Shown here in pieces: positions 13,399-60,417 of a stretch of 64,000 nt of DNA. Positions within the stretch are counted from its first letter, which is position 1; every line of letters begins with the position of its first letter. Origin of the DNA: Nitrospinaceae bacterium (GTDB lineage: Bacteria > Nitrospinota > Nitrospinia > Nitrospinales > Nitrospinaceae); contig OZ245011.1 of assembly GCA_965223665.1 (NCBI GenBank), positions 512,001 to 576,000 on the forward strand. Direction: 5' to 3'. Below the pieces are notes generated by a model. It had not been told where the DNA came from. It saw only the letters and a list, made by a program, of their open reading frames with translations, and made no database searches. The translations under genes were made by a program, and so were the position numbers.

Positions 13399-13452
13399 TA
13401 CTTCAACTTCTTGTTAGAAATTTTTTAATTCTAAAGGAGTGCAATTTACGGG

Positions 13453-18899: not shown

Positions 18900-18932
18900 A
18901 GGGGTTGGGTGTTAGAGAATTGAAATTATAAA

Positions 18933-37131: not shown

Positions 37132-37179
37132 TGGTCGGGATGAGTGGATTTGAACCACCGACCCCTTCGTCCCGAACGA
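37132..37179 (-). repeat. att site: displaced 3' fragment of tRNA-Pro(CGG)
   Basis: The minus strand reads TCGTTCGGGACGAAGGGGTCGGTGGTTCAAATCCACTCATCCCGACCA: anticodon loop CGG, T-arm, 3' acceptor strand and CCA. The D-arm and 5' acceptor strand are missing, and an integrase is adjacent. Confidence 0.9.
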
Positions 37180-37361
37180 GATTAATTTGAAAAATAGTGA
37201 AAAAGCTTGAAACATTGTGAAACCTATCCTATAGTATCTCAAGGCTATAAATCAACCTAATTTTCTTTTCAGGTGGTTTCAAATCAATTCATAGTATTTA
37301 CCTTGAATTGCTACCCAAAGCGCTACCCAAGAGGTCTCTTCGCTTCGTACGAAATTTTATC

Positions 37362-41110: not shown

Positions 41111-41155
41111 TAAAAATAAAAAGGGTAATTATTGAAAAATTTGGAGGAAGTAAAA

Positions 41156-41635: not shown

Positions 41636-41839
41636 TTAGAACATTTTGATGATTTTTTCTTTGCTTTTCGTAATTAAACTACTATTTCTTATATGCTCTA
41701 AAGTTTTTGCAAGAAAATTTCACATCATAAAAATCAAATAAGCAAAACTGACCAATAAAATTGAGAAGAAACTAAATACCAGACTGGTTAGTCTTATCTT
41801 ATGTTCACTTAGAGTCGTTACTTTTTTATTCTTAAAGTA

Positions 41840-42048
41840 ACAGATATTACAACCTGTACCTTTCACCGTTATTTCCCAGAATCTTTTTCCACCTATGAGT
41901 ATATCTTCGATTCCATCACTTCGGTTTCACGCAACTTTACAATAATTTCTTCGATACTACACCGTTTCCGTCCCACAATCTTTTCCACTTGTCCCCTTGT
42001 TTTTTTGATTTGGTTTAATATCTGGACTAATTTCAACCGGTCAGGTAA
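41840..42048 (-). mobile_element. IS3-family left-end remnant (terminal IR plus decayed orfA)
   Basis: Minus strand TTACCTGACCGGTTGAAATTAGTCCAG (IS3-like IR), then GTG 41976 giving VGRKRCSIEEIIVKLRETEVMESKIYS*, similar to IS3 OrfA N-termini. Confidence 0.7.
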
Positions 42049-42346
42049 CTTTTATTCTATTCCGATAGGAATTTCTACCACAGAAAGGCTAGAATTTGAT
42101 CACCGCTATCGAATCCCTACCGTTATCAATAACAGGATTTGGTCATACCCATACCCTTTCTTAAATTAAATAGCAAAAACGAGGCAAACACCCGTATTTC
42201 ATACCTTTTGATTGATTCTAATTGAAATCCGTGTTCCTTTGGATTAGAATCTCGTTCTGGAATTCCTAAAAACAATTTAAATTTTTGGCAGTCAATTTGG
42301 TAATTCAATTGACTTTTTTTTCACAAATTTTTTTCAAAAATTTAAT

Positions 42347-44206
42347 GTGAACATAAAAAATCTCGTTTTTCGAATTTTTTGGCCGGAATTAAAAAGGGTC
42401 GAAAGATTGAAATGCCTAAAAATTTGGAATACAGCTAATCAGCAAGTTGAAGCTCTTTTTGAATTGGAAAAATCCATTGCTGAAAGATTATTCCTTAAAT
42501 TAACCGTTTTTTTAGAAACCACTTCATTTGATTGGGAAAGGGAAAACACCACCTGCGATATAACAGAATTTTCTCAATTCATTTCAAGACTGAAGAAAGA
42601 AGTGGAAGTTATTAGAAAAAAATTTACGGCAGAAACAAAAAACCCAAAACTTTCTGATCAAAAGCACATTTTACAAATTCACTCTATTTTTGAAACCTTA
42701 GAAGAAGTTTTTGCTTCAATCCAGACTTTAGAAATTTCTTTAAACCACACCCAGGAAATTTCCAAAAATTATTCTACTTCCCTAGATATTCCTTCTCTTA
42801 AAAAGGAAATTAAACAATCTTTATCCGAAACTTTAACTAGAGTGGAGCAAGTATTGAACTGGATACACCCATCAGAGTTTTATTTTAATATTTTTTCAGT
42901 ATTGTATTATCCTCTATTTTATAAATGGTTAGTGGCAATATATTTCTCCTTAAATCCAAAAGGTGCTCTAGGAACGGAAGAAAAAAGATTCTTACTTCAA
43001 TGGGAATTTCTTAAGCTTTACAATATTATTTCAAATACTTTAGCTAATTCCCCAAACAAAAAAAATCTCCAAATTGATTCAATAATAGATTTTTACCAAT
43101 CGTTTGAAAGTTTGCAAAAGTTGGCGGGAAATTCTTTAGCAAAATTTTGCCTACAGATTGTTGATTACAAAGAGGGTTCCAATGAGAATGAAAAATACAT
43201 ATCCAAAATAATAGCAGCGGGATTAAAGCAAGGGGGAAAAATGACTATACACCCTAGCTTCATCTATACTATCTCCCCATATTTGCCTCAAGAACGCAAA
43301 CAAAAAATAATCGAAAAAGTTTTTTATTTGGTAAATGAAAAGATTCAAAAAATTATTCAAAAACAATGGATAAATTATCTTAGAACGTTAAAACCTGTTG
43401 TGAATCATTATTCGAGCAATCAACTGCGTTTGCGGAAAGTAATAAAAAGCTATTTGAAAATCAAAACCCATTTATTAACCGTTAATGGCACAGACTTTTC
43501 GAAATCTAGTCAATCACAAAAAATTATTCAGGAAAAATTGGCGCATGAAGATTCTACCGTTTTTGCGACAAACTTGGATAGGCGCAGAGAAATTTTGTTT
43601 TGGAAACGGGGAGGCTTGGCAACTGTAAGAACTCATATCCCTTGGGAGTATTTTCAATTTGACCCGAAGCAGATTGGAAAGGTCCATCGATATTTAGGAT
43701 TTTTAAAACGAACTCTTGGAACACAATGGGATAAAAAACTTTGCCAGTCCAATTTTGATAACATTAATTTTAGTAATTTCCAGCAAATTATTGATGAAAT
43801 AGTTGAAGAGTGGATGTTCCTTTTTCAAAAGGAAAGTGAATCTATTTTTCAATCTCTAGCCAAAACATTAGAAAAAATTGCTCATGAAAATTCAAAAGAA
43901 TTTAAATCATTCTGTACAGATTTTCTTTTAGATATATTTTCATCAATTGATGAAATGGAAAATGGTCATTCCCTTCCTATCAAACAACAATTTCAAGAAT
44001 TATTTAAACAACATGGATTGCAACTAATTTCCCCAGTGGTGGGAGATTTTGTTGATTTCGAACAACACGCTATCGTTTCTAACGAAACAAAAGATTTAGT
44101 TGAGGGGGATCTCATAGTTTCAAAAGTAATTTGCCATGGGCTAATTAATACTATGGACAACCGAGTATTTAAAAAATCTGAGATTGTGGTCAGGAGGCAA
44201 TTGTGA
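42347..44206 (+). CDS. Helical protein with C-terminal GrpE-like domain
   Basis: The C-terminus LFKQHGLQLISPVVGDFVDFEQHAIV...IVSKVICHGL...RVFKKSEIVV parallels the GrpE beta-domain. The start codon is uncertain. Confidence 0.7.
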   Translation: MNIKNLVFRIFWPELKRVERLKCLKIWNTANQQVEALFELEKSIAERLFLKLTVFLETTSFDWERENTTCDITEFSQFISRLKKEVEVIRKKFTAETKNPKLSDQKHILQIHSIFETLEEVFASIQTLEISLNHTQEISKNYSTSLDIPSLKKEIKQSLSETLTRVEQVLNWIHPSEFYFNIFSVLYYPLFYKWLVAIYFSLNPKGALGTEEKRFLLQWEFLKLYNIISNTLANSPNKKNLQIDSIIDFYQSFESLQKLAGNSLAKFCLQIVDYKEGSNENEKYISKIIAAGLKQGGKMTIHPSFIYTISPYLPQERKQKIIEKVFYLVNEKIQKIIQKQWINYLRTLKPVVNHYSSNQLRLRKVIKSYLKIKTHLLTVNGTDFSKSSQSQKIIQEKLAHEDSTVFATNLDRRREILFWKRGGLATVRTHIPWEYFQFDPKQIGKVHRYLGFLKRTLGTQWDKKLCQSNFDNINFSNFQQIIDEIVEEWMFLFQKESESIFQSLAKTLEKIAHENSKEFKSFCTDFLLDIFSSIDEMENGHSLPIKQQFQELFKQHGLQLISPVVGDFVDFEQHAIVSNETKDLVEGDLIVSKVICHGLINTMDNRVFKKSEIVVRRQL

Positions 44207-45933
44207 GTTTACTCAGGTTAGGTCTAGACTTAGGAACCACAAACATCACTGCCGTTATCTGGTCTGAAAAAACAAATAGCTTTGAACCGGTGATCATGCC
44301 TGAATTGTGTGACGGCAAAGGGGTTATTTCAGCAGTTTCATTCAAAAAAGGAGATAAATATTTTTTCGGTTCTAAAGCAGAATCTTTAATTCAAGCAGAG
44401 GGTCACCGACACAACTCAGATATATCTTTTGAATTCAAAAAATCCTTTGGAGAAAATATTTCACCAGAGGAGAGAGAAGAAAAAAAAAGAATTACAAAAA
44501 ATTTGATCCTAAAAATCTTAAGCGAGGTTATGAAAGAACGCAATGAAGATCAACTTGATCTGGTCATTGGCCACCCGTGCGCTCCCTTGTCAGAAAACCT
44601 AAAAAGTGTTTACCAGGAAATTTTTGGTTCACTTATGAATAATGTAGATGTAGGAGAAGAAAAAGCTAATGAATTAATTCTTAATAAATACAAGGAATCG
44701 GTTGTTATTGTTCAAGTCAAATATATGTGGGAGCCTATCGCGGCCTGTGTTGCCATGAGTCCACAAATCAACTGGGAGGAAAATTGGAAAAAAGGAGATT
44801 GCTTGTTGGTAATTGATGGAGGAGGGGGAACTCTTGACATGACTCTGCTGCAAATAGTGGAAGGGGATAATGCGCAAGAAAGTAAAACTCAGGAAGGACC
44901 ATTGTTTGTTGCTCTTAAACGTATTCACTCGGATGGAAGCAGTGAATTAGGCGGAGGGCGTATTGATGAAGTGTTGATCAATAAATTCGACAAACACCTT
45001 ATTGATCATACCCAGATTGCTCCCCAGGATAATGATTTTTTTTGTTTTGCGAGGAACCGTTTTGTTAAAAAATTAAAAGAAATTTTTTGTTCGTATGAGG
45101 GCAATAAAGACTTAAAAGAAAAGATTGAGAAAATTCAACCCATCGCAAAAAATCATTTTTTCCAAGCAATTTCTAAAGACTTTCCTCTGGAAGGCCTCGA
45201 AACGGCAATTAATTTATTTAAAGAAGAATTTCATAGTGACGAGGACATTGCTTTTGGTGAGGGAATCATTGAGTTTAAAGAAACACTCAAAAAGTTTTTT
45301 AGAGAATTTTTTGATAAAGCGTGCAACAAAATTTCAAGCGACAATCTAGAGATCAAAAAAATTTTATTTTGTGGTGGTGCTACAAAGGTCCGCTTTATTC
45401 GGCAATTGGCTATAGATCAATTTAAGCCGATTATAGAAAATACCCAGTCAATTCCCCAAGAGGAACAACCCTTTCTAGTTGGAGAAGGATGTGCTTTTAG
45501 ATGTTATATCAATGCGCATCGATCTATGGTTGGGTTAGAGAAGTATAGTGACATTCGGGCGGCCTGGGGCATATTTTCTGAAGATATTGGACTACAAGTG
45601 GGACAGGAATGCGTACCTATTTTTTTGGCGGGAGATGGCATTGAAAGTGGATTGCATTTACAAAAATCTGTCTTTTTCCCCTGTGCCGGCGACGAAATTG
45701 ATCCAAAGTTTTGCATGAACAAAAATGGAAAACTCATATTGTTGGATTCGAAGCAACTTAAATGTTCTGGCCCCCTTCAATGGGAAGGACCGGAAGATAT
45801 TATCTCTGTAACCTTAACCGCTTATGAAGCGGAAGAAAAATTAGAGTATGAAATTTTCACCCTTGATAACAATATGAAACGTTCACAAGAACTGATTAAA
45901 GGAACCTTTGAAAATTTAAAATTTTATGAATAG
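44203..45933 (+). CDS. Divergent Hsp70-family ATPase
   Basis: GLDLGTTN, EPIAA, IDGGGGTLD, LGGGRID, CGGATKV and VGEGCA are all present in canonical order. Confidence 0.9.
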   Translation: MSLLRLGLDLGTTNITAVIWSEKTNSFEPVIMPELCDGKGVISAVSFKKGDKYFFGSKAESLIQAEGHRHNSDISFEFKKSFGENISPEEREEKKRITKNLILKILSEVMKERNEDQLDLVIGHPCAPLSENLKSVYQEIFGSLMNNVDVGEEKANELILNKYKESVVIVQVKYMWEPIAACVAMSPQINWEENWKKGDCLLVIDGGGGTLDMTLLQIVEGDNAQESKTQEGPLFVALKRIHSDGSSELGGGRIDEVLINKFDKHLIDHTQIAPQDNDFFCFARNRFVKKLKEIFCSYEGNKDLKEKIEKIQPIAKNHFFQAISKDFPLEGLETAINLFKEEFHSDEDIAFGEGIIEFKETLKKFFREFFDKACNKISSDNLEIKKILFCGGATKVRFIRQLAIDQFKPIIENTQSIPQEEQPFLVGEGCAFRCYINAHRSMVGLEKYSDIRAAWGIFSEDIGLQVGQECVPIFLAGDGIESGLHLQKSVFFPCAGDEIDPKFCMNKNGKLILLDSKQLKCSGPLQWEGPEDIISVTLTAYEAEEKLEYEIFTLDNNMKRSQELIKGTFENLKFYE

Positions 45934-48900
45934 AAAATTCAAAAAATTTAAAAGTTTTATTTTTTTAACGATGGTTTTATGGTTGGTTGCCAATTTTTTG
46001 ATGCCCAACGTTGCTCTGCCTGAAAACCCTCAATCAAATGACCAGCATCATATTATTTTAATGATGGATAAAACCCATTATATGAATAAGGGATTTAAGG
46101 AAGATTTCTCGGATGAAATTTCGCAACGTCTTCAAATCATTTTTTCAAAAGATTTACCAAATATACTAACCAGTAGTCATAATAACAGGGTTCTCTATAA
46201 TAAAGAGAAAGACTATCTTAGCATTTTTCCATTCGGTTTAACTAAGTGGAAACCCAATCTGGAAAATAATTATTTTTATGATAAATGTGGAAATCGTCGT
46301 AGGCCTACTTTAAATAATTTCCAAAAAAATCCGACAAAATCATGCACCGATCTTTTAAGCTTTAAGAATGTTAATCCAAATGAAATATTGCCAAAATACT
46401 TGCAAGCATTCCAAAACCAAAATAAGAAAAATAAAACTTCAAAAAATCCCTTTTCAAGAGAAAGTGCCGAACTACCATTCGCACCCTATCTGGGACTTTA
46501 TAAATCATTTATCGATTCCTCAAAAAAATATGAATTTGAAAAAGTCAAAATTTTAATATTAACTCATGGTGATTCACATTTTGAAGAAGTAAATTCGGAC
46601 TTTAGCAACCTTTCCTTAATACAAAAATCAGAAAAATTAAGTAGCAAGAAAAAAAAACAATTTTTAAAAAATTCTAATTTCGATTTTCTCAAGAAAATCT
46701 ATAAAGGCATTGCTAAAACTCTTGACGTAACAAAGGTGGATTTTACCCAATCCTCCCTTACAGAAAAGGGTTTTCAACTATGGATGTATGAGGTTACCCC
46801 AAAACCTATCAAATCAAGTGATTTAATAATATCGCAATTAAAAGACAATCAAACGGCCCTGGAATTGCCAGAAGATGATAACTGGGAATTGTCACTCAAT
46901 GTAGAGGTAAAAAATAAAGATTTTGATGAAAGTGAAACTTTTCCCCTAACCTTTCACAAGGTGGAAGCCGATGTTCAAATACCAGGGAGCGATACATTGG
47001 ATTCTTTGCATGTAAAATCTAAAACCATTAAATTAAGATTTTCGAATGCGCCTCCTGGGTCTACCCTCTATTTAACTTATTGGTTTAAATCCAATTTTTA
47101 TCCATTTTTTCTGATTGAGAGTGAAAGGAAAGAAATTGCTTTGACCACTCCTTCCTTATTTGAAAAAATATCCCGAAATTGGAAGAGTTTGACGTTCTGG
47201 GGAATTTTGGCTACTTGCTTCTTTTTTATATTACTAAGGCAAATCCTAGGAGATATTAAGTATAAGCTGAATATACATTTAGTGAAAAAAATTCCTGAAA
47301 TCTATGCATTTGAATCTTTACAGACCTCTGAATCAGAGAATTTCCTAACTATAGGAAAGTTAAAGTTGGAACGGAAGGGCCTTATGATGAGTTTAGCTCC
47401 GGCTAAAATTATCTGCAAGGAATTATCTATAAAATCCACTATGATCCAGCAAAAACGAGTGGGTTTGAATTCTTATCCTTGTTCCGCTGTCAAACTTTAT
47501 TGGAGCGGCGGCCATCCTTTCAAAATTATAAAGGGTAAATTGCCAGCGGAAAGTTTTGATCTTCGTCTTGACTATAAAGAACTTCAAAAATTAAAAAATA
47601 CCCAAAATGGGGATTCAAACCCATTCTTCCCGCAAAATATTAGTATTAGTTTTTCCGTGTCTTTTGAGGCAAAGCGGAGATTTTGGTTTTCCCGCGAACC
47701 TCAAAAAACCCTGGAACAAGCTTCTTTTCCAATTCGATTATTACCTCCTGTAACTGGCAAATCTCTGGAAACAATTAATTTAATTGAAAAAACTCAATTT
47801 CAAAAAGGTCTTCTACCTATCGGAATTTTGACCATCCGCCCTGAGGATATGGGCCACTTGTTTCCGAACAATCAAATTTTTGCGTTTCGGTTATCTAACG
47901 GAAACAAGTCCATACCCATATTTTTTAAGTTAAATTTTAATACTTCCAAAGTCTCATCAGATCTCAGCGCCTTAAAAGAGGGTGCGGAACCTAATACACT
48001 GGAAGGAAATTTAAATATTGAAACTGCTTTCAATGAAGCTGAAACCAATAAAGAAATCCTAAAAACTGTTCTAAAAGTCTTTCAAAAACAAGAAACTTTT
48101 AAAGAAATAGAAAATAATATAAACAAAGGAAAAGAAACTGGTATTTTAAATCCTGAAGTTGTGTTTAACCAAGGAGCCTATTTAGAAACTAGAGATTTTG
48201 GGAAGCTCATGCACTGCCGTTTTCTAACAAAAAAAACTCTGCCCATTTTACTTTATACCGATCTTTCCGAAATAAGAAATCCAGCCGATCAGATGGGATT
48301 GACATTACAAAAAAAATCAGCAAATGCTTTAAAATCCTACGGGCAAGCCAAAGGGTGGATTGATTTGGACGAAAAATTAGTTATTACTCGAAATGATGAG
48401 GTAACCGAATTCGTATGGGATTTCGAGGACATGGAAAAAAATAAAGTTTTTAAATTTTCCTCCAATGACACGGATCCTTCAATATTTTCTGAATCTACAA
48501 AAATGGAAGTAATCTATCACGCTAGGAATTGGGAAAACCTGGGGAATTTGCCCATTGGGATTCTCCAATTGGGTGATAAAGCAGTTCATGGTACAGGCTT
48601 TGTCGAAATATCTAATATGAATGTGAAAATAGAATCTGAAGATATTCAATGGAAGGCCTCAATAGATAAAAATGATTCCATATTATTTGAAGGTTCTTCC
48701 AACCAGTCGGATCCGCTCAACCTTTGGAGCTTTGAGCAAAAATATCAAAATTGCAAAATTAGTTCTGAATCGATTCGATGGGAAGAATATAAATTGATCA
48801 TTGATCGACCGGCAAAATATATTGAAAATATCACCAAGCCCGATGGAGTTCTCACATTAAAATTTAATTTTAATGTGAGAACCGTGGAGGAAGAAAATAA

Positions 48901-50932: not shown

Positions 50933-53406
50933 TTCAAAAGTTTTTTTTAATTTTCATTTTTTTCCTCATTCTATTGGGAAACATACCTATTACAGAAGCA
51001 AATAAACAAGAACTTCAATCCAAGTATTTAGTTTTTTGGTACACGCAATTCTTATTTAATGAACAAAACCCAGAAAAAAAAATAAAGTTAGCAAATCCAA
51101 TCATTATTTTGAATTTTTTTAAAGTAGATTCAAAAGGTAATTTTTTTGAACGAAAAGAATTGGGATTTCACATAAAGAAAAAGAGTAAGAAAAATGAAAA
51201 AAGTATAATTGGAGGGGGTGCCGATCACGAGAGTTTTTATAAACTCCTTTTTGACGCTTCGGTCAAGGACAAAAAGACTTTAAATACTTTACAGAAAATC
51301 TTTAACTCGGGTTCCAAAAAAAAGATAAATATAAGCTCATATCTTTTAAGGTCTTTTTGGAAAAATTTATTCCAATATTTAAATCGTTCTAAAGACTATT
51401 CCGACTTAAAAAATAATTTTAATTTGCAAGTGTCCCCTGTTCTAGAGCCTCCAAACAAAAACTTTCAAAAAAACTTATTAAGCGAAAATAAAAAAAATAT
51501 TAATTGGTCGAATATCCAATTCCCCCGAGAGTTATTAGAAAAAAACAGTCCTGAATTTAAGAAACTTATTGAGGCCGCAAAAGAAAGGGAAAACACTCAC
51601 AAAGAACCCGAACCCGTTCAACCTAAAGAAATAGAATCCCAAGTCAACGACAACAACACGTCTCCTTTATTAGAGCAACCCAAAGCAGAAGTTCCCTTAA
51701 ATAAGGTAAAAAATTCTAAACCTTCCAACAAAATATTAATTTTTACTTTGATTGTTCTCATAATACTTTTGTGTTTTGCGTTGTTTCTTGTTTTCAAATT
51801 GAGGAAAAGAAACAATAGCTTAAAATTTAAAATCAACGGAATATTTTTAAATTTAAATTATTCGTCCAAGGGGCATGATCAACAAGAAATGAGGAAAAAC
51901 GTTGAAGAGGATAAAACCTATGATGAAAAATACGACTTAATAATATTTGAATTGAAACGTTTAAAAAACTTAGCTAACACCTCCAACTACCAGGAATTTA
52001 TTGACGAAGTAAAAAATCAACTTCAGTTCTCCAACTATTCTTATACCCAATGGGTCGATAGCTTTTCAGATCATGACCCAGCAAAAACTGTAGCTCGGAT
52101 ATTAGGACAACGAATTTTAAATTTACAGAATGAAGTTGATAATTTTAAATCTACAGAAAGCAAAATAACAGAAGAGATAAATGTCCTTTTAAATTCAAGC
52201 GAACCAGAGTTTTCAATTAGTTTTCAACATTTGCTAGATAGTCATAAAGAGTTAAATAAGGAATTAGGAAGCAAAGATAAATCCTTTCAAACTGAAAAAG
52301 AACAACTTAATATCGAAATTGATAAACTGCTGAAAGAAAATAAAGTGTTAGAAAATTTTGCATGCTTTATTAATAAGACGCAATCTCCTTATAAAATAGA
52401 AAAAGGATTGCCTAAATCAGATTCACCGAATTCTCAATCCCCCCTTGAACTTAATAAGTCTAATTCCATTATCACTAAGAAAATGAAACAAATTGTTTCC
52501 ATCCTTAAAGAGTGGGAAAAGCAACGATTGTTTCCCATGGCACTCCCTTCTGCGGAAATCCGCGAAGATTTTATTTTCGATGGGATACAAACAGGAGAGT
52601 ATCTTACAGATATTCAAAATTCCTTAAAAGAAAACCTCAAAATAGTAAAATCCAGGTACAAACAACTCGGTATTAGTCCTTTAGATTTAGATTGTCATTC
52701 ATCGAAGGAAGAAAGTGTTTTCAGTGAAATTAAAGAAAATATTCGTCGGTTAAATACAATTGTAAAATATTTAGCAGAGCACGATACAATCCTTACTGAC
52801 TTATCTTCGACTCAAAAAAAAATAAACAAATTTTACGAAAAAATTATTTGTTTGGATTATGATTCAGAGGAAATTTTTGTCGACGGAAATTTTAACGAAT
52901 TAAAATTTAAACATTGGACGTTTGAGCAATTAGATCCCATTTTACGACAACCTTACCGAGGATTACTCATTTTGTTCCAACGGTATTGTTATTTTTACCC
53001 AAAGGTTGATTCAAAGATGGAAAGTTTCCGAAAAGAAAGTCGCAAAAATATAAAATATGGAAATACTCCTGAAATCAGAACACTCATCCGGTTAGCCAAG
53101 GCCGAAGCCGTAAAAATTGCAGAAATGCTAGGAATTACCTATCACGAAATTGAAATTTTTGAAACAGCTTTCAACAATGAATCCCACAAACTGGATGGTG
53201 GAAATAATATACATGAATACCAAGAAGAATGGGTTCAATTTTTAAGATCGCAAATACAAGAGGGAAAGGAAGATTTATTTGAAAATCGAATTATTGGAAT
53301 CCAATCATTTGGTTTCCAATCTCGACTTGATGAAATTGCAGATGAAAAAAGCGTGGTTCAAATCTTTCAGAAAGCATATAAAGAAAATCTTTTAGGTACT
53401 AAATAA
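50923..53406 (+). CDS. Membrane-anchored coiled-coil protein with a weak GrpE-like C-terminus
   Basis: Signal peptide from ATG 50923, Pro/Glu-rich linker, TM (ILIFTLIVLIILLCFALFLVF), coiled coils and C-terminal MLGITYHEIEIFETAFNNESH...RIIGIQSFGF...KSVVQI. Confidence 0.65.
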   Translation: MQIIQKFFLIFIFFLILLGNIPITEANKQELQSKYLVFWYTQFLFNEQNPEKKIKLANPIIILNFFKVDSKGNFFERKELGFHIKKKSKKNEKSIIGGGADHESFYKLLFDASVKDKKTLNTLQKIFNSGSKKKINISSYLLRSFWKNLFQYLNRSKDYSDLKNNFNLQVSPVLEPPNKNFQKNLLSENKKNINWSNIQFPRELLEKNSPEFKKLIEAAKERENTHKEPEPVQPKEIESQVNDNNTSPLLEQPKAEVPLNKVKNSKPSNKILIFTLIVLIILLCFALFLVFKLRKRNNSLKFKINGIFLNLNYSSKGHDQQEMRKNVEEDKTYDEKYDLIIFELKRLKNLANTSNYQEFIDEVKNQLQFSNYSYTQWVDSFSDHDPAKTVARILGQRILNLQNEVDNFKSTESKITEEINVLLNSSEPEFSISFQHLLDSHKELNKELGSKDKSFQTEKEQLNIEIDKLLKENKVLENFACFINKTQSPYKIEKGLPKSDSPNSQSPLELNKSNSIITKKMKQIVSILKEWEKQRLFPMALPSAEIREDFIFDGIQTGEYLTDIQNSLKENLKIVKSRYKQLGISPLDLDCHSSKEESVFSEIKENIRRLNTIVKYLAEHDTILTDLSSTQKKINKFYEKIICLDYDSEEIFVDGNFNELKFKHWTFEQLDPILRQPYRGLLILFQRYCYFYPKVDSKMESFRKESRKNIKYGNTPEIRTLIRLAKAEAVKIAEMLGITYHEIEIFETAFNNESHKLDGGNNIHEYQEEWVQFLRSQIQEGKEDLFENRIIGIQSFGFQSRLDEIADEKSVVQIFQKAYKENLLGTK

Positions 53407-53512
53407 AATTTCCATATTTTTTTATTATTTTAAGTGATTAAAAATTTCAAAAAGGATGCCATTTTTGTATTTTGTAATCCTAAATTTCCCATAAATAAAT
53501 TTCTTCAAGCCA

Positions 53513-56500
53513 ATGGATTTTTTTTCACAATTGTTAACTTCAACACCGGGCCTAATCGTATTTACTGGTGGAGGACTTCTCTTTATCTGTTGTTGGTTGG
53601 ATCTCAAAGAAGATTCAGACAAATTTTCAATTAGAACTTATGCAGCACAATTAATTCCGTTCATTACTCTTTTTTTAGTTTTATTGGTTTCTTCACCCTC
53701 CTTGCAAGGGTTTCGTTTTTCGTACAATTATTTTTCCCTCCCATTTTCTGATGACCAAGGCGTAAAAATAGGCGGTAAAGGTAAAAATAGTTTTTTTTTG
53801 AAGGATAAAAAAACCTTTGAAAACACAAATGCATTGCTGTCCTACGTTCAGGTTTTTAAGGATGGTTCTATAGAAACAAACAATAATCAAGAAAAAGGGG
53901 ATTTTCTTCTTTTAGTGAACAAAATCCAATCAGGGAAGGATAACGGATATTTAGGAGGACATCGATTAAAAATTGGAGATATTATAAACGTTAAAAATTC
54001 TAATAATAAAAATTATCAATTAAAGTTTTCTAAAAATAAAGATGGAGATTATTATTTTCAATCGGCCCAACTAAAAAAAGATTATTTATTCGCCAAAACC
54101 AAGTCCAAGAGTTTTACATTAAAAAAAACCTGTCGACCATATTTTTCCAAGGGTAGAGCCTTATATTATTTAGATAATATCTTTCGGCAGATGAATGAAT
54201 CCGCTCAGTCTAGTCCCACTAATCTAAGAAAATTTTATAGAAGCATAATTTTTTGTGATCCAAACCTATCAAAAATTAACGATGGGAAAACGACAAATTT
54301 CATTTTTATCCCTAGAGATAAAGATGCGATCGTCATGGACTCACATAAGCCAATAGTTTCCTTGGAAATAAAATTTCCTGTTCAATTAAAAGTTTATAGA
54401 GTCAGTAAACCCCAAAGAAAGGACTTCGAGAAAATTTGCTATGGATGTTTTCATGGCAAATTAACCACTTACAATAAATTTGAACTTTCACAATCGAATT
54501 TATCTTCTGATTTCCTCCTTATTCGCCCTCAACCGACACCCTTTGTTTTTTTTCATACCGAAACTAAAAAGGAAAGTTTTCAAAATCCCACAATTTCATT
54601 TGGGGCAAAACTAGCAGCATCGAATTTGATCCTCTTAACTCCCTCAAAAGAATTTGAGGATTTCTCCTATAAAATTCACATCGACCGCAAGAAGAAAAAA
54701 ATTACATTCACTGGATCGAATGGTTCTTTATCCGCTAATTTTTCAGAAAATATTTTAATTCCTAAGGATGAAAACTCAGGGCAAATTAATTTAAAGTTTG
54801 AATTATTGGGGTTTCCTTGGTGGTTGATAGGCATCTATTTAGTATTTCTAGCTTTAAAATTATTTTTATTGTGGAATTTAAAATTAAATCCCTCAAAGAC
54901 TCTTTTATATAGCTTATTATCGATTGAATATTTTGTTTTTCTTAAACTTTTATTTTCTTTTAAGGCTTCATTTCTATCACCATATGATATAGAGCCATTA
55001 GAAATAGCAATATTGACTCTTTTCCTTTTTTTAGCAACGATATTAGTGGTACACACCTGGCTTAGTTTCTACTTATTGGTTACAGAAATCATTTTCGATG
55101 ATTTTGCCTCGTCAAAAACATCCAAGAGAAATGTTTATGTAAAGAATCTCTTTTTGAATTTAGGATTAAAATATCTTTTTCTTCTTATTGTTTTTATTGC
55201 GGCAGCTAAATCTCTTCTTTATTTCAAAGCGGGGGAGCACCCTCAGGTGCCGAGCACCCTTCAAGAAATTCTTTCACCAAGTATATTATTATGGATTTGG
55301 CCTCCTGCATTCTTTTTCACATGGGCATTCTCCTATAGTTTCTATAAAAAATTCCGCAATATTTATTTTCCAAAACTCTTTAGGTCAACTAATTCCCCTT
55401 TCAAAAAAATTCTAGAGCATCCTATCGTTGCTCGTATTCGAATAAAGGGAAAGAAACTACTAAAAATCAAAGATCCAAATCATCAACCCTTATTTGCTTC
55501 CATCGTTCAGTTATACCTTTTGCTATTTGTATGTTTTCTAGCCTGGAGTTTTGGAATTAGAGAAAGAATTTCCGGAATGTTCCAGCTTTCGATTATCATT
55601 GTTCCTCTATTCATATTTTTATTTGCGAAAGTGTTTTATAACACATTTTTAATATACTCAGCTGAATTAGAGAATAAGAGAGGAGAAAGCCAACCAAATA
55701 TTTTTCTAGAGTTTTTAATTTGGTTATTTTTTCCCTGCTTAGCATTTTATTCTCATTTAATTGATGATATTGGCCTTTTCGTTCTACTCTCGGTGCCAAT
55801 GATTTTTCTAGCCGTAGCACTAATTCTCGCAAAGTTTAATTTTGTCAAAACAAATTCGATTAGGATAATTATTGGGCAAGTCAAATTTATTCCACAAATT
55901 CTGGGGATTTTAATAATAAAAATAATCGATTGGTTCGCGAAATTATTTAAAAAAATTTTTCCGAACAACCTAGAAACATTTTTTATTTGGAAAAAACGTT
56001 TATTTTTGACGCATCTTCCTCAAATAAAAAAATATTTTTTTATCAATGGAATGATGTTTCTTTTTGTGGGATATATTTTATTTTTAATTTTCCCACAAAG
56101 CTTATATGGGGCATTCTTGTATGTCAAATCTTCTTTCCAAGAAAAACTAGAAATTGTAGAAACCCAACCACAAGGCGGCTTGGATAAAAAGAATTCATTT
56201 CTCGAAACTTTGATCGCTAGCACTGAAAACAAAATGCTTTATCGATTAGCATCTCAAAAAGACTTGGTATCCGCCAAAGGAGATATTAATTTTCAGGGGA
56301 TTGATGAACATTTGTTTTTATTGGAAAGCTATAGCCTTCCGGGAACACAAGTTTCTCAAGTTTTATTTGGAAATGGATACTTGCGAAATAGAATTCACCC
56401 GTCATTAAATAAAGTTGGTTTGAATGATAACGCTGTAGGAGTTTTCATGTTATCAGAATTCGGTTTATTTGGTTTTTTAGGATGTTTGATGGCTTTGGGG

Positions 56501-56776
56501 ATATTTGCCCTGGTTTGGGCTTTTAATATTAAACATTCTCCAAAAATAATTTTTCATGAATATTTGCGCTGGGTGATTTGCTTTTTTCTTTCCAGCGCAC
56601 TTATCATTTACGCTTTTTTATACATGACAGGTGTTAACTATAACGTTTGGCCATTAACTGGAAAAAATATTTATTTTTGGGGATTGAATTCAAAAAGTGA
56701 CTCCCTAGAAGCAATCTTATTATTTGGATTGCTCGTATTTTCTCAAATGTTACTTTCCAAAAAAATAGAACAATAA
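53513..56776 (+). CDS. Enlarged SEDS-family (FtsW/RodA/SpoVE-like) peptidoglycan glycosyltransferase
   Basis: Many TM helices; DDIG, LFGNGY, LNDNAVGVFMLSEFGLFG and WPLTGKNIYFWG parallel the SEDS motifs; soluble N-terminal insert of about 350 aa. Confidence 0.8.
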   Translation: MDFFSQLLTSTPGLIVFTGGGLLFICCWLDLKEDSDKFSIRTYAAQLIPFITLFLVLLVSSPSLQGFRFSYNYFSLPFSDDQGVKIGGKGKNSFFLKDKKTFENTNALLSYVQVFKDGSIETNNNQEKGDFLLLVNKIQSGKDNGYLGGHRLKIGDIINVKNSNNKNYQLKFSKNKDGDYYFQSAQLKKDYLFAKTKSKSFTLKKTCRPYFSKGRALYYLDNIFRQMNESAQSSPTNLRKFYRSIIFCDPNLSKINDGKTTNFIFIPRDKDAIVMDSHKPIVSLEIKFPVQLKVYRVSKPQRKDFEKICYGCFHGKLTTYNKFELSQSNLSSDFLLIRPQPTPFVFFHTETKKESFQNPTISFGAKLAASNLILLTPSKEFEDFSYKIHIDRKKKKITFTGSNGSLSANFSENILIPKDENSGQINLKFELLGFPWWLIGIYLVFLALKLFLLWNLKLNPSKTLLYSLLSIEYFVFLKLLFSFKASFLSPYDIEPLEIAILTLFLFLATILVVHTWLSFYLLVTEIIFDDFASSKTSKRNVYVKNLFLNLGLKYLFLLIVFIAAAKSLLYFKAGEHPQVPSTLQEILSPSILLWIWPPAFFFTWAFSYSFYKKFRNIYFPKLFRSTNSPFKKILEHPIVARIRIKGKKLLKIKDPNHQPLFASIVQLYLLLFVCFLAWSFGIRERISGMFQLSIIIVPLFIFLFAKVFYNTFLIYSAELENKRGESQPNIFLEFLIWLFFPCLAFYSHLIDDIGLFVLLSVPMIFLAVALILAKFNFVKTNSIRIIIGQVKFIPQILGILIIKIIDWFAKLFKKIFPNNLETFFIWKKRLFLTHLPQIKKYFFINGMMFLFVGYILFLIFPQSLYGAFLYVKSSFQEKLEIVETQPQGGLDKKNSFLETLIASTENKMLYRLASQKDLVSAKGDINFQGIDEHLFLLESYSLPGTQVSQVLFGNGYLRNRIHPSLNKVGLNDNAVGVFMLSEFGLFGFLGCLMALGIFALVWAFNIKHSPKIIFHEYLRWVICFFLSSALIIYAFLYMTGVNYNVWPLTGKNIYFWGLNSKSDSLEAILLFGLLVFSQMLLSKKIEQ

Positions 56777-56779
56777 ATC

Positions 56780-59700
56780 ATGGCCTATTCAAGTGATGAA
56801 AAACTTAATATTTCATTTTTAAAAAGGTGGTCGGTTCACTTGGCTGGCCTTCTTGTTATTTTTTTGTTGTTTAATTTACTGGTTTCTATCGGAAATAAAA
56901 TTTTCAAATTTGCAGCGAGTGATGAATCCACCCGATCTTATAATCCCACCGAGTATAACAAACTAGTTAATCATTTAATTGAAGACGAAAAAATTTGGTT
57001 GTTAAAAAACCAATTAGGCCGGGATGATCAATATAGAATTGCATATTTTCAATGTAAGCATTGCGATAAAAAAAATATCTCTATTCTTCATGAGATTCTT
57101 GAAGCACAAAATAGAAAACAGATTAAAATTCTCGCAACTGAGTTAACTGACAGTCATTTTAAGAAAAGATTACAAGCTTACTATAAACCATTTAATAAAG
57201 AAAAAATCAAAAAAGCTGTTAGGCAATATTTAAAAAACAAAGAAAATTCCTCTGAATGGAATGAAAATTTTCAACGTCTTATTCTAAAAAAAGATATAAA
57301 TGATTTTAATAATGGAACCACAGGTTTATTTAAAATAAGTGACGGTGAATTGAAGGCTATTGAACCAAAAAGTCATTCCATTCCAAAACCCACCCGAGTG
57401 ATTAACCGCTGGAAAGGCGATCTACTATTTAGACCAGAAAAAAATAGTTTTATTGAATTGAATGACCATCGAATTGTATTAATTCCGCCCTCTGGAAACG
57501 AGGTCCCAAAGTGTCTGCCCTTATCACTCAAAAATCTTCCCAGAACAGCAAACTGCATTATCTTTAAAAACATTGTCAAAATTGACTATGGGAAGTGTCT
57601 CGATACAGAAAAACAAAATTCTTTCTATATAATAAACCAATCCGAAGACCACGTTCTGAAAAGAAAGAAATCAAAAAACGAAACTAAGGACATAGAATAT
57701 TTGGGCAATACGTGCACCGTTTTTAATATTGATCGTAAAATGGAATTTACACTGGTTAAAAAAAATCAAAACAAAGAAATTATAAACATTAAATATTATC
57801 CTAATGGAAAAGGTGAAAAAATAAACATTATTCAAAACCAAAATGGCCGAGAAAAGAGAGTCCAATTGAATGATTCTTTTCCAATGAATAAAAACATTGC
57901 CACAGTAATTGATGAGTTAATCAAAACAGGAATCATTTCCCAAGATGACCTTACAATCGAAAAAATCAGTGGGACAGAACATCCCAATATCAATTTAACT
58001 TTGGACCCTTTGCTTCAGGAAAAGTTACAAAAAGAATTAAGTCATTATGCTTTAAACACAAAAATTATCTCAGAAAGACCTTTTAAAGGGTCCATTGCGG
58101 TGATGGATATAAAATCTGGAGATCTATTGGCCTTGGCAAGCTTTCCGGATCCAGCAACGATGGATACCTATAAAAATACTTTGAAATGGCGACAAAACCA
58201 TAAATTGGAATTATATGAAAATAACCAGAATTTCGAGCCGCATTTCATTGGATCTATTACCAAACCCCTATTAGCAGCCACCATATTGAATAAAATTCCT
58301 GATCTAGTTACTTTACGAATTGGAGATTATGGCAAACTTTCTTCCGCCGAAAAAATTCCGAAAGATAAAAAAAACAAATTTTATCCATCAAAAGATTTTC
58401 TGGGATTTCGGTTAAGCAAAGGGATTACTGACTCTTCTTTTCATTTTTATAATGTATCAAAACGAGGGGAATGCGATCGCGGAAGATTTCCAATTGGATT
58501 TCTTGAGTTTTTGAAATATTCAAGTAATCGGTACATGTTTAATCTTTTCTTTTTAGCTGTTGCCCATCAGCTACAAGGAAATCATTTATCTCTGGTAACA
58601 ACTAATCGGCCTTTAGAATGTGGAATAGTAAAGTTGAAGAATGAAACAATAGAGTATCAACCTCAATTTTCCCCATTTTTTGACACTTCGTATAAAAACC
58701 CCATTGTTAACTGGAACCAATTAAAATGGTTGGATGCTTCGATCCGTGAAAACTTTACAATTTTCCCTTCCAAAGATAGGAGAGATGGGGAGAAAGATGC
58801 AAAGCTTTCTAATACCCAAAAGCAGAATTTGAAAATTAAAATGTTAAAAATGGAAACGGATTATTCCCATTGGTTTTCGCTCATTAAAGAAGGTCTTTGG
58901 AGTAATTATGTTTTGAGACAATTCAAAGGAATTTCATATCCAAAAGTTCATTGGAAATTGCATTCAAATCACCACAACCGTCTTAACGATCTTCGAGATA
59001 TATTACTAGGGGCAGGAGAAAACAAATGGTCCAATATTGCCTTGGCAGAGATGTTTGCCACCCTGGTAACCGGAAAAAAGATTAATAGTAATCTGATTTT
59101 CTCTTCTAACGAAAATCACGATGATAACTCTTTCGATGAATTTAAACTGCAACCAGCTATTCGTGAAAAAATTTTGCAAGGTCTTTCATTAGTAATTATG
59201 CCCGATGGAAGACACAGATTTGGTAACCACGGGGGGGGGACAGCCAATTTGTTGTTCAATGAATTTTTTAAAACCAATTTTCCTATGCAAAATGTAAATA
59301 GGGCTATATCTAACTTTGGAAATTTAGAGTATAGAAAGTTAATTCGACGTCAACTAAATATGATGAGCCGAGCCACTTATAAATTTTATGGAAAAACAGG
59401 TACTTTTAACATAAAAAGTAGAAAACGTGGTAAAACACCTCCCTCAGGAGGTGCTTTTATTTTTGCGATTGTAAAATTAAAGAATCAAAAAAAATCTGTT
59501 TCAAAACCAATTAACAAACTTAACGCATCTATTTTAGAAAAGGCCACCGAAGTTTATGATAAAACACGACAACTCGCAAAAGATTTACTGAAAAAAGCAG
59601 AGGATCTCGTAAAAGAAAACAATAGTATTTATAAACAAGGTAACTCAAAACTGAAAATGAGCTATAACAATATTGATCGGGGAGTAGTTGTAGCTATTCA

Positions 59701-59839
59701 TCTCGATTATCTTGGAGACAGCTCTAAATCAGTTAGGTTAGCCAATTGCATTTGGACACACATTATGGAAGTTGTGGAAACCAAACCTATGAAAAGACAA
59801 ACTCAACTCCCTCAGTATTGTAATAAGAAAAATTTATAA
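56780..59839 (+). CDS. Penicillin-binding protein, transpeptidase domain (class B-like), with large N-terminal region
   Basis: N-terminal TM, INLTLDPLLQ, AVMDIKSGDLLALASFP, SITK (SxxK), SSN (SxN) and KTG. Confidence 0.9.
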   Translation: MAYSSDEKLNISFLKRWSVHLAGLLVIFLLFNLLVSIGNKIFKFAASDESTRSYNPTEYNKLVNHLIEDEKIWLLKNQLGRDDQYRIAYFQCKHCDKKNISILHEILEAQNRKQIKILATELTDSHFKKRLQAYYKPFNKEKIKKAVRQYLKNKENSSEWNENFQRLILKKDINDFNNGTTGLFKISDGELKAIEPKSHSIPKPTRVINRWKGDLLFRPEKNSFIELNDHRIVLIPPSGNEVPKCLPLSLKNLPRTANCIIFKNIVKIDYGKCLDTEKQNSFYIINQSEDHVLKRKKSKNETKDIEYLGNTCTVFNIDRKMEFTLVKKNQNKEIINIKYYPNGKGEKINIIQNQNGREKRVQLNDSFPMNKNIATVIDELIKTGIISQDDLTIEKISGTEHPNINLTLDPLLQEKLQKELSHYALNTKIISERPFKGSIAVMDIKSGDLLALASFPDPATMDTYKNTLKWRQNHKLELYENNQNFEPHFIGSITKPLLAATILNKIPDLVTLRIGDYGKLSSAEKIPKDKKNKFYPSKDFLGFRLSKGITDSSFHFYNVSKRGECDRGRFPIGFLEFLKYSSNRYMFNLFFLAVAHQLQGNHLSLVTTNRPLECGIVKLKNETIEYQPQFSPFFDTSYKNPIVNWNQLKWLDASIRENFTIFPSKDRRDGEKDAKLSNTQKQNLKIKMLKMETDYSHWFSLIKEGLWSNYVLRQFKGISYPKVHWKLHSNHHNRLNDLRDILLGAGENKWSNIALAEMFATLVTGKKINSNLIFSSNENHDDNSFDEFKLQPAIREKILQGLSLVIMPDGRHRFGNHGGGTANLLFNEFFKTNFPMQNVNRAISNFGNLEYRKLIRRQLNMMSRATYKFYGKTGTFNIKSRKRGKTPPSGGAFIFAIVKLKNQKKSVSKPINKLNASILEKATEVYDKTRQLAKDLLKKAEDLVKENNSIYKQGNSKLKMSYNNIDRGVVVAIHLDYLGDSSKSVRLANCIWTHIMEVVETKPMKRQTQLPQYCNKKNL

Positions 59840-60417
59840 AAACTATTTTTCAAAGCAAAGTGTGAAATTTTAAAAATTACAAAATTTTTGTCTTTTTTAA
59901 ATATATAAATGATATTAAAATTAAGTTTAAAAATAAATGCTTCTCCCTTAACTTCTTTGATTTACCTAGTTTTATTTCCATTCATATATTTCAAAAATCA
60001 AAAAATCTTTCAAGTTCGTATGATTACTCAATACAGTTTTTCTAGCGATACAATATCCAATTTGCGTTACAAAAGTGAAAAGTATGGGGAATTACAAGTT
60101 TCACGAAATTTTTTTGACCGAATTCCAATAACCAATTAACTTTTCCTGTTTGAACATCCCGCAGCATGGTGATCAGGCATTTACCTCGGTCGGTTCCTTA
60201 CGTTCACCAAAATCCAAATTTCAACTTAGAGTTTTATAGTTTTTCCTCCCTTTTGCTCTCTAATTACCCATTCTTACCACTCTCTTTTACTCCCCAAAGT
60301 TCTTAAGGAAAAAATACTCAAAAACTGAAATTTTATTAAATTTTTGTCTTGACTTTGTTTGAATTTCGTGGAAAATCACCAAAAATTACTCATTTTGAGT
60401 TTTTTTGGAGGTTTTTT

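Follow-up and report, generated by a model that had tools for sequence, protein, structure and literature searches.

A mobile island in the genome of a Nitrospinaceae bacterium carries a compact block of six genes whose products bring together divergent Hsp70-type ATPases and a divergent enzyme of the penicillin-binding protein (PBP) type. On sequence evidence, two of these proteins, p2 and p3, are homologous to Hsp70, and a third, p6, is homologous to PBPs with their three catalytic motifs kept. The preferred reading, held tentatively and at a little less than even confidence, is that of an island-borne envelope module in which an ATPase cycle of the Hsp70/GrpE type would control the module's own PBP, acting on the wall, and a membrane partner of that enzyme. 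Positions below are those of the window, the whole stretch of 64,000 nt that was analysed (contig OZ245011.1, positions 512,001 to 576,000), and those prefixed C1 are positions on the contig.

The six open reading frames (ORFs), p1-p6, lie on the + strand and encode proteins of 619, 576, 1668, 832, 1087 and 1019 aa. They occupy 42347-44206 (p1), 44203-45933 (p2), 45926-50932 (p3), 50908 (or an ATG at 50923) to 53406 (p4), 53513-56776 (p5) and 56780-59839 (p6). Re-derivation of the coordinates recovered the positions and junctions of six large co-oriented ORFs given in the first-pass annotation. Genes p1 and p2 overlap by 4 nt (GTGA, at 44203), p2 and p3 by 8 nt (at 45926), and p3 and p4 by 10 nt with the ATG start or 25 nt with the TTG start at 50908; p4 and p5 are separated by 106 bp holding no terminator-like site, and p5 and p6 by 3 bp. 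The tight junctions make the six a single operon-like block of island cargo. Their frames run uninterrupted through 5801 codons of AT-rich DNA, and because about 7% of random codons would be stops at 33% GC, ORFs of 576-1668 codons are not accidental. The best sigma-70-like site upstream (42222-42250, + strand) is a consensus match only, at 10 of 12 positions, and sites resembling promoters are no commoner overall than in shuffled sequence (60 vs 69.5). The matches to Hsp70, GrpE and PBP families described below all lie at or below curated cut-offs, each spanning only part of its domain; no family could be assigned to p4 or to about 60% of the p1 and p3 residues. Close relatives of p2-p6, orthologues included, were absent from the protein, genome, metagenome, viral and plasmid collections searched, p1 having been queried against its own genome only.

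The mobile, tRNA-integrated setting proposed for the operon is confirmed by an integrase, a repeat, an intact tRNA and an empty site. At one end, the ~45.4-kb island is bounded by a 48-nt direct repeat (37132-37179) that is identical to the 3' end of tRNA-Pro(CGG) and adjoins the integrase gene; at the other end lies the intact tRNA-Pro(CGG) (C1:594501-594577), 18.5 kb past the window end. Within the window neither ARAGORN nor Rfam reports a tRNA. The island is absent from a same-genus genome of a sister species (G001), where both flanks abut as an empty site. The tyrosine integrase (37308-38579, + strand; Pfam Phage_integrase 2.9e-20, Arm-DNA-bind_3 3.4e-20; phrog_1 7.4e-76) is followed on the same strand by an HTH_36 protein resembling a replication initiator (39996-40739; Pfam HTH_36 2e-08; phrog_391 and phrog_270 at ~3e-05) and a small terminase subunit (41132-41635; Pfam Terminase_4 2.6e-20; phrog_83 1.9e-37), near which no other phage structural gene was seen. 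Two other genes, farther along the island, encode a SIR2_2-domain protein and an endonuclease I.

Profile searches upheld the proposal of two Hsp70-like ATPases, namely p2 and the C-terminal part of p3. The cytoplasmic p2 has an Hsp70-type ATPase domain over aa 1 to ~470, followed by ~100 aa without family and no detectable substrate-binding domain. It matches the DnaK model TIGR02350 at 6.5e-7 over aa 6-228 and has both phosphate-binding motifs and the adenosine motif. A HMMER pass over 1.84 billion representatives returned eight non-self matches to p2 (3.5e-7 to 6.7e-4), all carrying PF00012. The membrane-tethered p3 begins with a hydrophobic segment (11-29), ~390 aa likely outside the cytoplasm and a transmembrane (TM) segment at ~420-444. 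Its Hsp70-like ATPase domain, at aa ~1020-1505 (window ~48983-50440), comes after a further ~570 aa whose fold is not recognised. The PADLOC ATPase model PDC-M61B matches p3 at 5.6e-10. An Hsp70-like HMM, whose members were picked without reference to p3, matches it at E 2e-12 over aa 1139-1505 and ranks it fifth of 4516 ORFs, below DnaK, p2 and two ~340-aa ORFs that are the genome's second- and third-best PF00012 matches. A vWA-like region, also proposed for p3, gained no support.

Two GrpE-like proteins had been proposed, p1 and p4; the first assignment holds weakly, for the C-terminus of p1, and the second is not supported. In p1, which has no TM segment, ~500 N-terminal aa without family precede a GrpE-like part at aa ~545-617 (window 43979-44191). 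Pfam GrpE matches it at 6.8e-5 (23.0 bits) over profile positions 97-163 of 165, and its hhalign score of 24.4 was reached by none of 60 shuffles. In a six-frame search of the whole genome, p1 is the third-best GrpE match (E 0.02), behind two real GrpE genes. An ESMFold2 model of p2(1-445) with p1(470-619) predicts a contact, scoring 0.58 against 0.00 for the best control. The tool rates this as 'weak support'; at least 63% of contacts recur between runs, and partner pLDDT is at least 66. In the tool's calibration, 51 of 78 solved complexes passed the mark, as did 2 of 108 mismatched pairs, but scores of 0.60 or less took in only 5 of those 78 complexes and all 4 mismatches that passed. Because DnaK-GrpE complexes are solved, the pass may reflect likeness only. 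Both the GrpE-like character of p1 and its contact with p2 are to be read as weakly shown. Protein p4 consists of a hydrophobic segment (8-26), a ~250-aa segment, a TM segment (276-294) and a ~540-aa hydrophilic region with no recognisable family.

The arrangement resembles a DnaK-GrpE pair in that p2 is an Hsp70-type ATPase with intact nucleotide-binding motifs, the GrpE-like p1 lies directly upstream with an overlapping junction, and the two are predicted to touch. It differs in the missing substrate-binding domain of p2, in the length of p1, of which only the last ~70-120 residues are GrpE-like, and in the lack of a J-protein, since none of the six proteins has an HPD motif or a Pfam J-domain match. 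The genome also has a dnaK-grpE pair of its own (C1:607609-610234) and a further grpE gene.

An Hsp70-GrpE theme is also described among the GAP1-N2-type GTPase-centric conflict systems (Kaur, Burroughs, Iyer and Aravind, eLife 2020, PMC7159879). As in that theme, in the portion of the article considered here, the island combines an Hsp70, a GrpE and a second protein with an Hsp70 ATPase domain outside the housekeeping dnaK operon. The same portion places a membrane-bound vWA-fused component only in a different theme and mentions no PBP or SEDS component; unlike its systems, p1-p6 include no detected GTPase, FNIII or DnaJ partner. The CoCoNuT type III restriction systems, in the corresponding portion of their description (eLife 2024, PMC11090510), likewise recruit divergent Hsp70-like ATPase units into mobile multi-gene systems, but p1-p6 lack the McrB GTPase and McrC homologues, HEPN RNases and TerY-type vWA triads found there.

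These likenesses raise the question of an anti-phage or inter-element conflict system, in which the Hsp70/GrpE pair would be a regulated sensor or switch, as in NTP-dependent conflict systems described computationally. The membrane proteins p3-p6 would then be effectors, either stopping infection at the envelope or killing the infected cell via deranged wall synthesis. Such a system would differ from the envelope module in role (defence or abortive infection instead of constructive wall building), not necessarily in parts, and we consider it a serious rival, though rather unlikely. The integrase, replication-initiator-like protein and lone small terminase do look like a phage-satellite module, and the SIR2_2-domain and endonuclease I genes share the island, but location on an island alone is no sign of defence, and profile searches found no nuclease, protease, TIR, SIR2 or pore-forming effector domain within the six genes. 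The defence role suggested in the first-pass annotation was echoed in part by PADLOC, whose candidate-defence model PDC-M61B matches p3 (5.6e-10) and p2 (4.9e-5); no known system was matched whole, this one shared ATPase model was the only return, and four of the six proteins had no PADLOC defence match at E < 0.001. The ATPase and GrpE components recall those of Kaur et al., as far as that account is considered here, yet the GTPase that defines those systems is missing: none of the six proteins contains a Walker A motif. That the genes are so divergent and without known relatives would fit fast-evolving conflict genes.

The wall-acting parts of the envelope module would be p6 and p5. SEDS proteins and class B PBPs form peptidoglycan synthase pairs (RodA-PBP2, FtsW-FtsI, SpoVE-SpoVD) that are organised by the actin-fold ATPases MreB and FtsA, and in the standard arrangement the gene for the polytopic protein comes immediately before that for the class-B-type PBP. 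The proposed PBP-type transpeptidase was recovered in p6 by several routes. The protein has a single N-terminal TM segment (19-37), as in class-B PBPs, a transpeptidase domain from aa ~399, and the motifs SxxK (S492-I-T-K), SxN (S581-S-N) and KTG (K872-T-G) in canonical order. Among 4516 ORFs, p6 is the fifth-best match (E 3.4e-7, 27 bits) to a class-B PBP HMM built from 31 sequences of this phylum, after the four ordinary PBPs; the next ORF scores E 0.94. The alignment is confined to the first part of the transpeptidase domain with the SxxK site. Pfam Transpeptidase matches the C-terminal 619 aa at 22.6 bits (cut-off 22.1), and pbp2_mrdA matches p6 at 2.4e-6.

For p5, the proposed SEDS identity fails in all profile searches and is favoured only by language-model features and by its position upstream of p6. 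The protein starts with two TM segments and a ~375-aa loop (61-437); ~13 further TM segments follow, with a ~115-aa loop (865-980) ahead of the last three. Pfam gave no match to p5 even at E 10, PF01098 at E <= 10 found nothing in this genome beyond its two housekeeping SEDS genes, and a local SEDS HMM run with --max did not place p5 among 2522 rows at E <= 1000. By hhalign, the p5 tail scored against SEDS no better than shuffled sequence, 57 of 100 shuffles equalling or exceeding its score. In protein-language-model features, 21 of the 30 clusters nearest to aa 430-1087 belong to the PF01098 (SEDS) set (score 0.92), and 170 of 256 features are shared, figures that are uncalibrated for parts of proteins. 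From this resemblance and the gene order, p5 is possibly SEDS-derived, and in the preferred reading it would probably be a strongly diverged glycan polymerase of the SEDS type. With the SEDS call for p5 failing profile searches and the GrpE call for p4 unsupported, the initial reading of the operon is partly refuted; the PBP call for p6 withstands these searches and the GrpE call for p1 does so weakly.

Compared with known SEDS-class B PBP pairs, the polytopic p5 gene likewise lies just upstream of a TM-anchored PBP-type gene, and the neighbouring genes include ATPases of the actin/Hsp70 fold. Unlike in those pairs, the ATPases resemble Hsp70, with p1 as GrpE-like partner, and are not MreB or FtsA, p5 is three times the usual length (1087 aa vs 373 and 376 aa in the genome's own SEDS proteins), p6 measures 1019 aa against 581-795 aa in the genome's four PBPs and matches only part of the domain, and the genes sit on a mobile island while the genome keeps two SEDS and four PBP genes elsewhere. 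An envelope machine unrelated to peptidoglycan, with p5 as an unrelated transporter or glycosyltransferase, p6 as a PBP-fold sensor, carboxypeptidase or scaffold, and the ATPases powering assembly, export or anchoring of a surface structure, seems unlikely. It would accommodate the failed SEDS profiles and the ~15 predicted TM segments of p5, against 10 expected of SEDS proteins, but not readily its nearest language-model clusters or its standard place in the SEDS-PBP gene order. Likewise, p6 aligns to PBPs only around SxxK and its SxN and KTG motifs stand ~290 residues apart, yet it keeps all three. Large non-cytoplasmic or membrane parts of unknown fold, present in four of the six proteins, would also suit such a machine. 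That the six are orphan genes of a selfish element without coherent joint function, or decaying, with family matches as remnants or chance, is very improbable. In its favour, no relative was found for the five proteins searched, the sequencing runs containing this DNA come from one study only, GC is 0.329 vs 0.383 for the genome, and p2 alone has a strong ribosome-binding site (AGGAGG), the other five starts having no clear one. Against it, the frames are unbroken and their stop and start codons overlap, p2, p3 and p6 keep intact catalytic motifs, and p6, p3 and p1 rank directly after, or within one place of, genuine family members in the proteome or six-frame genome.

In the envelope module, the six products would form a complex spanning the cytoplasmic membrane. 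The C-terminus of p1 would act as a GrpE-like nucleotide-exchange factor cycling the cytoplasmic ATPase p2, while p3 would supply a second, membrane-tethered Hsp70-type ATPase domain with a large domain on the opposite side, and p4 would be a bitopic adaptor. Together, p1-p4 would control the polytopic p5 and its partner p6, the latter an acyl-serine enzyme of the penicillin-binding type anchored in the membrane. The output would be local peptidoglycan synthesis or remodelling, switched by ATP binding and exchange. We infer the SEDS identity of p5, the roles of p4 and the outer domain of p3, the coupling of the ATPases to p5 and p6, and this output; a nucleotide-switched envelope machine is plausible. 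No published description of such a system was found in the literature searched, and the combination hints at an undescribed mode of cell-wall control.

Six co-oriented open reading frames, p1 to p6, lie on the + strand between positions 42347 and 59839 of the window. They comprise p1 (42347-44206, 619 aa), p2 (44203-45933, 576 aa), p3 (45926-50932, 1668 aa), p4 (50908-53406 with an ATG at 50923, 832 aa), p5 (53513-56776, 1087 aa) and p6 (56780-59839, 1019 aa). Going from p1 to p6, the genes overlap at the first three junctions, by GTGA, by 8 nt and by 10 nt (the last measured from the ATG at 50923), and are separated by 106 bp and 3 bp at the other two; both the frames and this pattern of overlaps and gaps agree with the first-pass annotation. 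At 33% GC, a random codon is a stop in about 7% of cases, so chance does not produce frames of such length. A terminator-like site was sought in the 106-bp gap between p4 and p5, and none was found. The best promoter-like site is located about 100 bp 5' of p1, such sites overall not being enriched, and among the six genes only p2 has a strong ribosome-binding site. The six-gene block is real, intact and carried by a genomic island.

Crude hydropathy analysis assigns p1 and p2 to the cytoplasm. By the same analysis, p3 and p4 are built alike: a signal-like hydrophobic N-terminal segment is followed by a stretch of 250-390 aa, a single TM segment and a large cytoplasmic part, which in p3 has an Hsp70-like ATPase at its end. 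The polytopic p5 has about 15 TM segments, and p6 has one TM anchor with about 980 residues outside. From the topology of p3, p4, p5 and p6, four of the six proteins are therefore predicted to be membrane-spanning. As catalytic parts of the block, only ATPases on the inside and a PBP-type enzyme on the outside are recognisable. No Walker A or GTPase motif was found in any of the six proteins, nor a match to a GTPase family, nor a J-domain HPD motif. Comparison of p1 with p4 revealed no internal paralogy, and p2 and p3 align with each other at only E 0.03.

The two Hsp70-like ATPases proposed from the first reading of this DNA are borne out in p2 and p3. The DnaK model TIGR02350 matches p2 at 6.5e-7 over aa 6-228, with 28.1 bits against a cut-off of 822, and PF00012 gives 18.8 bits for p2 against a cut-off of 20.6, and 11.1 bits for p3 in a six-frame genome search. 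PF00012 is carried by all non-self library matches of p2 (8/8). For p3, an Hsp70-like HMM built from DnaK and the p2 matches, with members picked without reference to p3, gave E 2e-12 over aa 1139-1505. The PADLOC candidate-defence model PDC-M61B also matches p3, at 5.6e-10, and no related paper was found under the name PDC-M61. The phosphate-1, phosphate-2 and adenosine motifs of Hsp70 occur at aa 9, 205 and 391 in p2 and at aa 1020, 1246 and 1422 in p3. The HMM alignments end at about aa 473 in p2 and aa 1505 in p3, and the tails beyond, where Hsp70 proteins have their C-terminal substrate-binding domain, match no family. At the level of sequence, these data place p2 and p3 in the Hsp70 superfamily, outside the curated family.

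In addition, p2 matches phrog_691, labelled "partition protein", at 1.3e-10 over aa 50-265. This match presumably reflects the actin/Hsp70 fold shared by ParM-type proteins, and the role of p2 may be filament-forming rather than chaperone-like. The vWA-like character once attributed to p3 has found no support. When p3 was considered as a vWA protein (PF00092/PF13519 or the MIDAS motif), no Pfam match was obtained, and a VWA_2 search of the genome at E <= 10 gave nine matches, none of them p3. Alignment by hhalign covered only a 10-residue stretch, with a score reached by 5 of 60 shuffles.

Two GrpE-like proteins, p1 and p4, had also been proposed, of which the C-terminus of p1 stands and p4 does not. 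The Pfam GrpE profile (PF01025) gives p1 23.0 bits against a cut-off of 25.8, aligning at profile positions 97-163 of 165 only. In a six-frame GrpE search of the whole genome, p1 came third after the two true grpE genes, with E 0.02 and 15.9 bits, and a local GrpE HMM, built in this analysis, ranked it fourth among 4516 ORFs (E 0.11). Its hhalign score against GrpE was 24.4, reached by 0 of 60 shuffles. The C-terminal domain of p1 thus appears GrpE-like above background, short of the curated cut-off.

Complex prediction with ESMFold2 was employed for p1(470-619) together with the ATPase domain of p2, yielding a score of 0.58 versus 0.00 for the best of three controls, which was graded as "weak support". 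Between the p1-p2 runs at least 63% of contacts agree, and the partner pLDDT is at least 66. When the tool was calibrated, 51 of 78 solved complexes reached the mark, as did 2 of 108 mismatched pairs; scores of 0.60 or below included only 5 of the 78 solved complexes, yet all 4 passing mismatches. Solved DnaK-GrpE complexes exist, so the pass of the p1-p2 pair may show likeness only.

As a GrpE candidate, p4 matched neither Pfam nor the local HMM, and its hhalign score was reached by 12 of 60 shuffles. Modelling of p4(600-832) by AlphaFold2 without an alignment gave a pLDDT of 37.8, too low for a fold search. A motif pattern written post hoc from these very sequences matches p1 and one true GrpE and does not match p4; it was not used as evidence. 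Of 41 genomes searched in the phylum, 37 have two GrpE matches. In the present genome, one GrpE gene lies at C1:607609-608091 (C1 being contig OZ245011.1), next to dnaK at C1:608456-610234 and about 13 kb beyond the tRNA of the island, and the other at C1:1319673-1320146.

The transpeptidase (PBP) call for p6 holds, marginally, through a profile match, an HMM rank, three motifs and a TM anchor. Pfam Transpeptidase (PF00905) gives 22.6 bits on the C-terminal 619 aa against a cut-off of 22.1, and 20.1 bits when the entire protein is used; this match, which barely passes, is confined to profile positions ~1-55. Using a local class-B PBP HMM made from 31 sequences of this phylum, p6 ranks fifth among 4516 ORFs with E 3.4e-7, behind four genuine PBPs and ahead of the next ORF at 0.94. 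This alignment extends from the end of the pedestal region through the SxxK site. The motifs S492-I-T-K, S581-S-N and K872-T-G occur in this order, the first being the only one inside the statistically supported alignment, and the SxxK/SxN/KTG spacings are longer than the usual PBP spacings. The single TM segment is N-terminal, at aa 19-37, and residues 38-430, the expected pedestal (PF03717), gave no Pfam match.

SEDS proteins fold with 10 TM segments, TM8 being preceded by a large outer loop. For p5, which the first-pass annotation had called a SEDS protein, all profile searches argue against the assignment. Pfam returned no match even at E 10, PF01098 (FtsW/RodA/SpoVE) found two housekeeping SEDS genes only in the same genome, and p5 was missing from the list of a local SEDS HMM at E <= 1000, run without filters. 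The hhalign comparison of p5 with SEDS gave a probability of 0.3, with a tail score equal to the shuffled score (57/100). AlphaFold2 without an alignment modelled p5(430-1087) with a pLDDT of 44.5 and a pTM of 0.24, too low for a fold search.

Language-model features, the arrangement of loop and helices and the position beside p6, on the other hand, speak for the assignment. Among the language-model look-alikes of p5(430-1087), 21 of the 30 nearest clusters are in the PF01098 set (0.92, 170 shared features), and with the whole of p5, two clusters of hypothetical proteins of ~950-1030 aa come ahead of an FtsW/RodA cluster (0.88). By hydropathy, the last three TM segments of p5 follow a loop of ~115 aa, compatible with SEDS topology, and p5 ends 3 bp upstream of the PBP-type gene p6. 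Compared by eye with a 15-sequence SEDS alignment, p5 has, near aa 491-494, 968-985 and 1047-1062, only part of the residues of three collinear motifs, a resemblance not above chance by hhalign. On balance, SEDS ancestry of p5 is slightly more probable than another origin.

The block stands alone in the collections searched with p2 to p6. In a HMMER search of 1.84 billion representative proteins, the best non-self match of p2 was 3.5e-7, and p2 is absent from 40 related genomes. With p2, p6 and p5(430-1087), a word-indexed protein search recovered each query and nothing else, with at most about 8000 word-sharing candidates scored per query and with the words for p6 taken from its poorly conserved first 500 residues. 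Pattern scans for p3 and p4 in genome contigs, for p6 and p5 in metagenome contigs and for p5 in viral contigs yielded nothing. In plasmid records, p5 had no match and p6 had one weak match, to an ordinary PBP. Across 120 genomes of the phylum, p6(390-1019) gave 17 weak matches, of which 14 fell at the beginning of ordinary class-B PBPs of ~580-690 aa, while p5(430-1087) gave one spurious match and p3(1001-1668) two weak ones, none credible. Searching the own genome by tblastn with all six proteins revealed no paralogue, and a PDB sequence search with p6, p5 and the C-termini of p1 and p4 found nothing below E 0.04. Since the block has no relatives, its meaning hangs on structure determination or experiment, not on comparison. 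The sequencing runs holding this DNA belong to one study only, with no RNA run listed.

ARAGORN and Rfam detected no tRNA within the window. At window positions 37132-37179, just upstream of an integrase gene, 48 nt of the tRNA-Pro(CGG) 3' end are repeated exactly, and 18.5 kb after the window ends comes the intact tRNA-Pro(CGG), at C1:594501-594577. Bounded by the 48-nt repeat and the intact tRNA, the island occupies C1:549132-594577 (~45.4 kb), with the integrase and the intact tRNA at opposite ends. A genome of the same genus (G001) shows the empty site: there, the counterpart of the left flank (86% identical) runs directly into that of the tRNA flank (93% identical). The earlier reading of a tRNA-integrated element was therefore right, as shown by the repeat, the integrase and the empty site. 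The six-gene block makes up 39% of the island, and the GC content is 0.338 for the island, 0.329 for the operon and 0.383 for the genome.

The island starts with the integrase, a replication-initiator-like HTH protein and a lone small terminase, and p1 to p6 come next. Judged from their sequences, these opening genes resemble a phage satellite module. PICI-like satellites are marked by an integrase, a replication module and a packaging-hijack gene in the absence of phage structural genes; at ~45.4 kb, the island is much larger than typical satellites. Between the small terminase gene and p1, 711 bp (window 41636-42346) hold no ORF of at least 100 aa, and a minus-strand frame at 41896-42051, considered as a transposase remnant, had no Pfam support. 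Directly downstream of the operon lies a triple-HTH protein of 323 aa (window 60349-61320; CI-repressor-like plus two Cro/C1-type domains), and at 61331-62320 a GH17-domain protein of 329 aa with a C-terminal match (6.2e-14) to glycosyl hydrolase family 17. This family contains mainly plant and fungal beta-1,3-glucanases.

The gene content of the island comes from a scan of 22 of its larger ORFs. In its far part, covered by slice L032 (C1:575000-594999), genes were identified for five-repeat ankyrin (4388-5170), TPR/TonB-C (11664-13025), endonuclease I (13292-14296), SIR2_2 (14641-15735), CBM96 (16083-16910) and trypsin-like peptidase (18047-19294) proteins, the positions being those of the slice. 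SIR2_2 is a domain occurring in defence systems. Several large island ORFs beyond the window (637, 486 and 449 aa) have no family match.

SEDS-bPBP peptidoglycan synthases are positioned and activated by actin-fold filaments and adaptors. Such a synthase, organised by actin-fold ATPases, is the closest working analogue of the block, although membership fails for the SEDS part (p5) and is marginal for the PBP part (p6). To our knowledge, no peptidoglycan synthase has been described that is controlled by a chaperone-type ATPase and a nucleotide-exchange factor. Among published Hsp70-GrpE neighbourhoods, the GAP1-N2 GTPase systems come closest (Kaur et al., 2020; PMC7159879). GAP1-N2 and DO-GTPase systems have a TRAFAC-class GTPase at their core (PMC7159879), whereas p1 to p6 are without one. 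CoCoNuT type III systems have only the Hsp70-like unit in common with the block (PMC11090510). No description joining Hsp70/GrpE to SEDS/PBP genes was found in the literature, where supplementary tables might list such neighbourhoods. What would be new here is that an accessory module of SEDS/PBP type has partners of Hsp70/GrpE type, for which there is no precedent.

We tentatively propose that the block is an island-borne envelope module in which an Hsp70/GrpE-type cycle governs wall enzymes, a reading with somewhat less than an even chance of being correct, its coupling and output being what we infer. In such a module, p1 would drive nucleotide exchange on p2, the ATPase cycle of p2 and p3 would be relayed via the bitopic p3 and p4 to p5 and p6, and p5 and p6 would make or remodel peptidoglycan locally. 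A more far-reaching form of this proposal, which we regard as doubtful, is that the mobile island delivers a self-contained trans-envelope machine. Here an Hsp70-type cycle with its own GrpE-like factor, and not an actin-like filament, would gate a private, extremely diverged SEDS-PBP synthase.

The same parts could also constitute a defence or conflict system, as would fit their location in an island that also holds a satellite-like module and a SIR2_2 gene, and the match of p3 to PDC-M61B; the block, however, lacks an effector domain and a GTPase and matches no known system, and this explanation is considered unlikely. An envelope machine serving a non-peptidoglycan task, with p6 as a sensor or scaffold, is quite improbable. 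That the six are functionless orphan genes is very improbable, since the long frames are intact, the junctions are coupled and the catalytic motifs are kept.

If a wall-enzyme module under Hsp70/GrpE-type control is real, it would add a new principle to the regulation of the main bacterial pathway that antibiotics target. A further consequence would be that mobile elements are able to carry their own wall-building or wall-altering machinery, which would bear on phage defence, on envelope specialisation and on the divergence of PBP and SEDS proteins beyond the reach of annotation.
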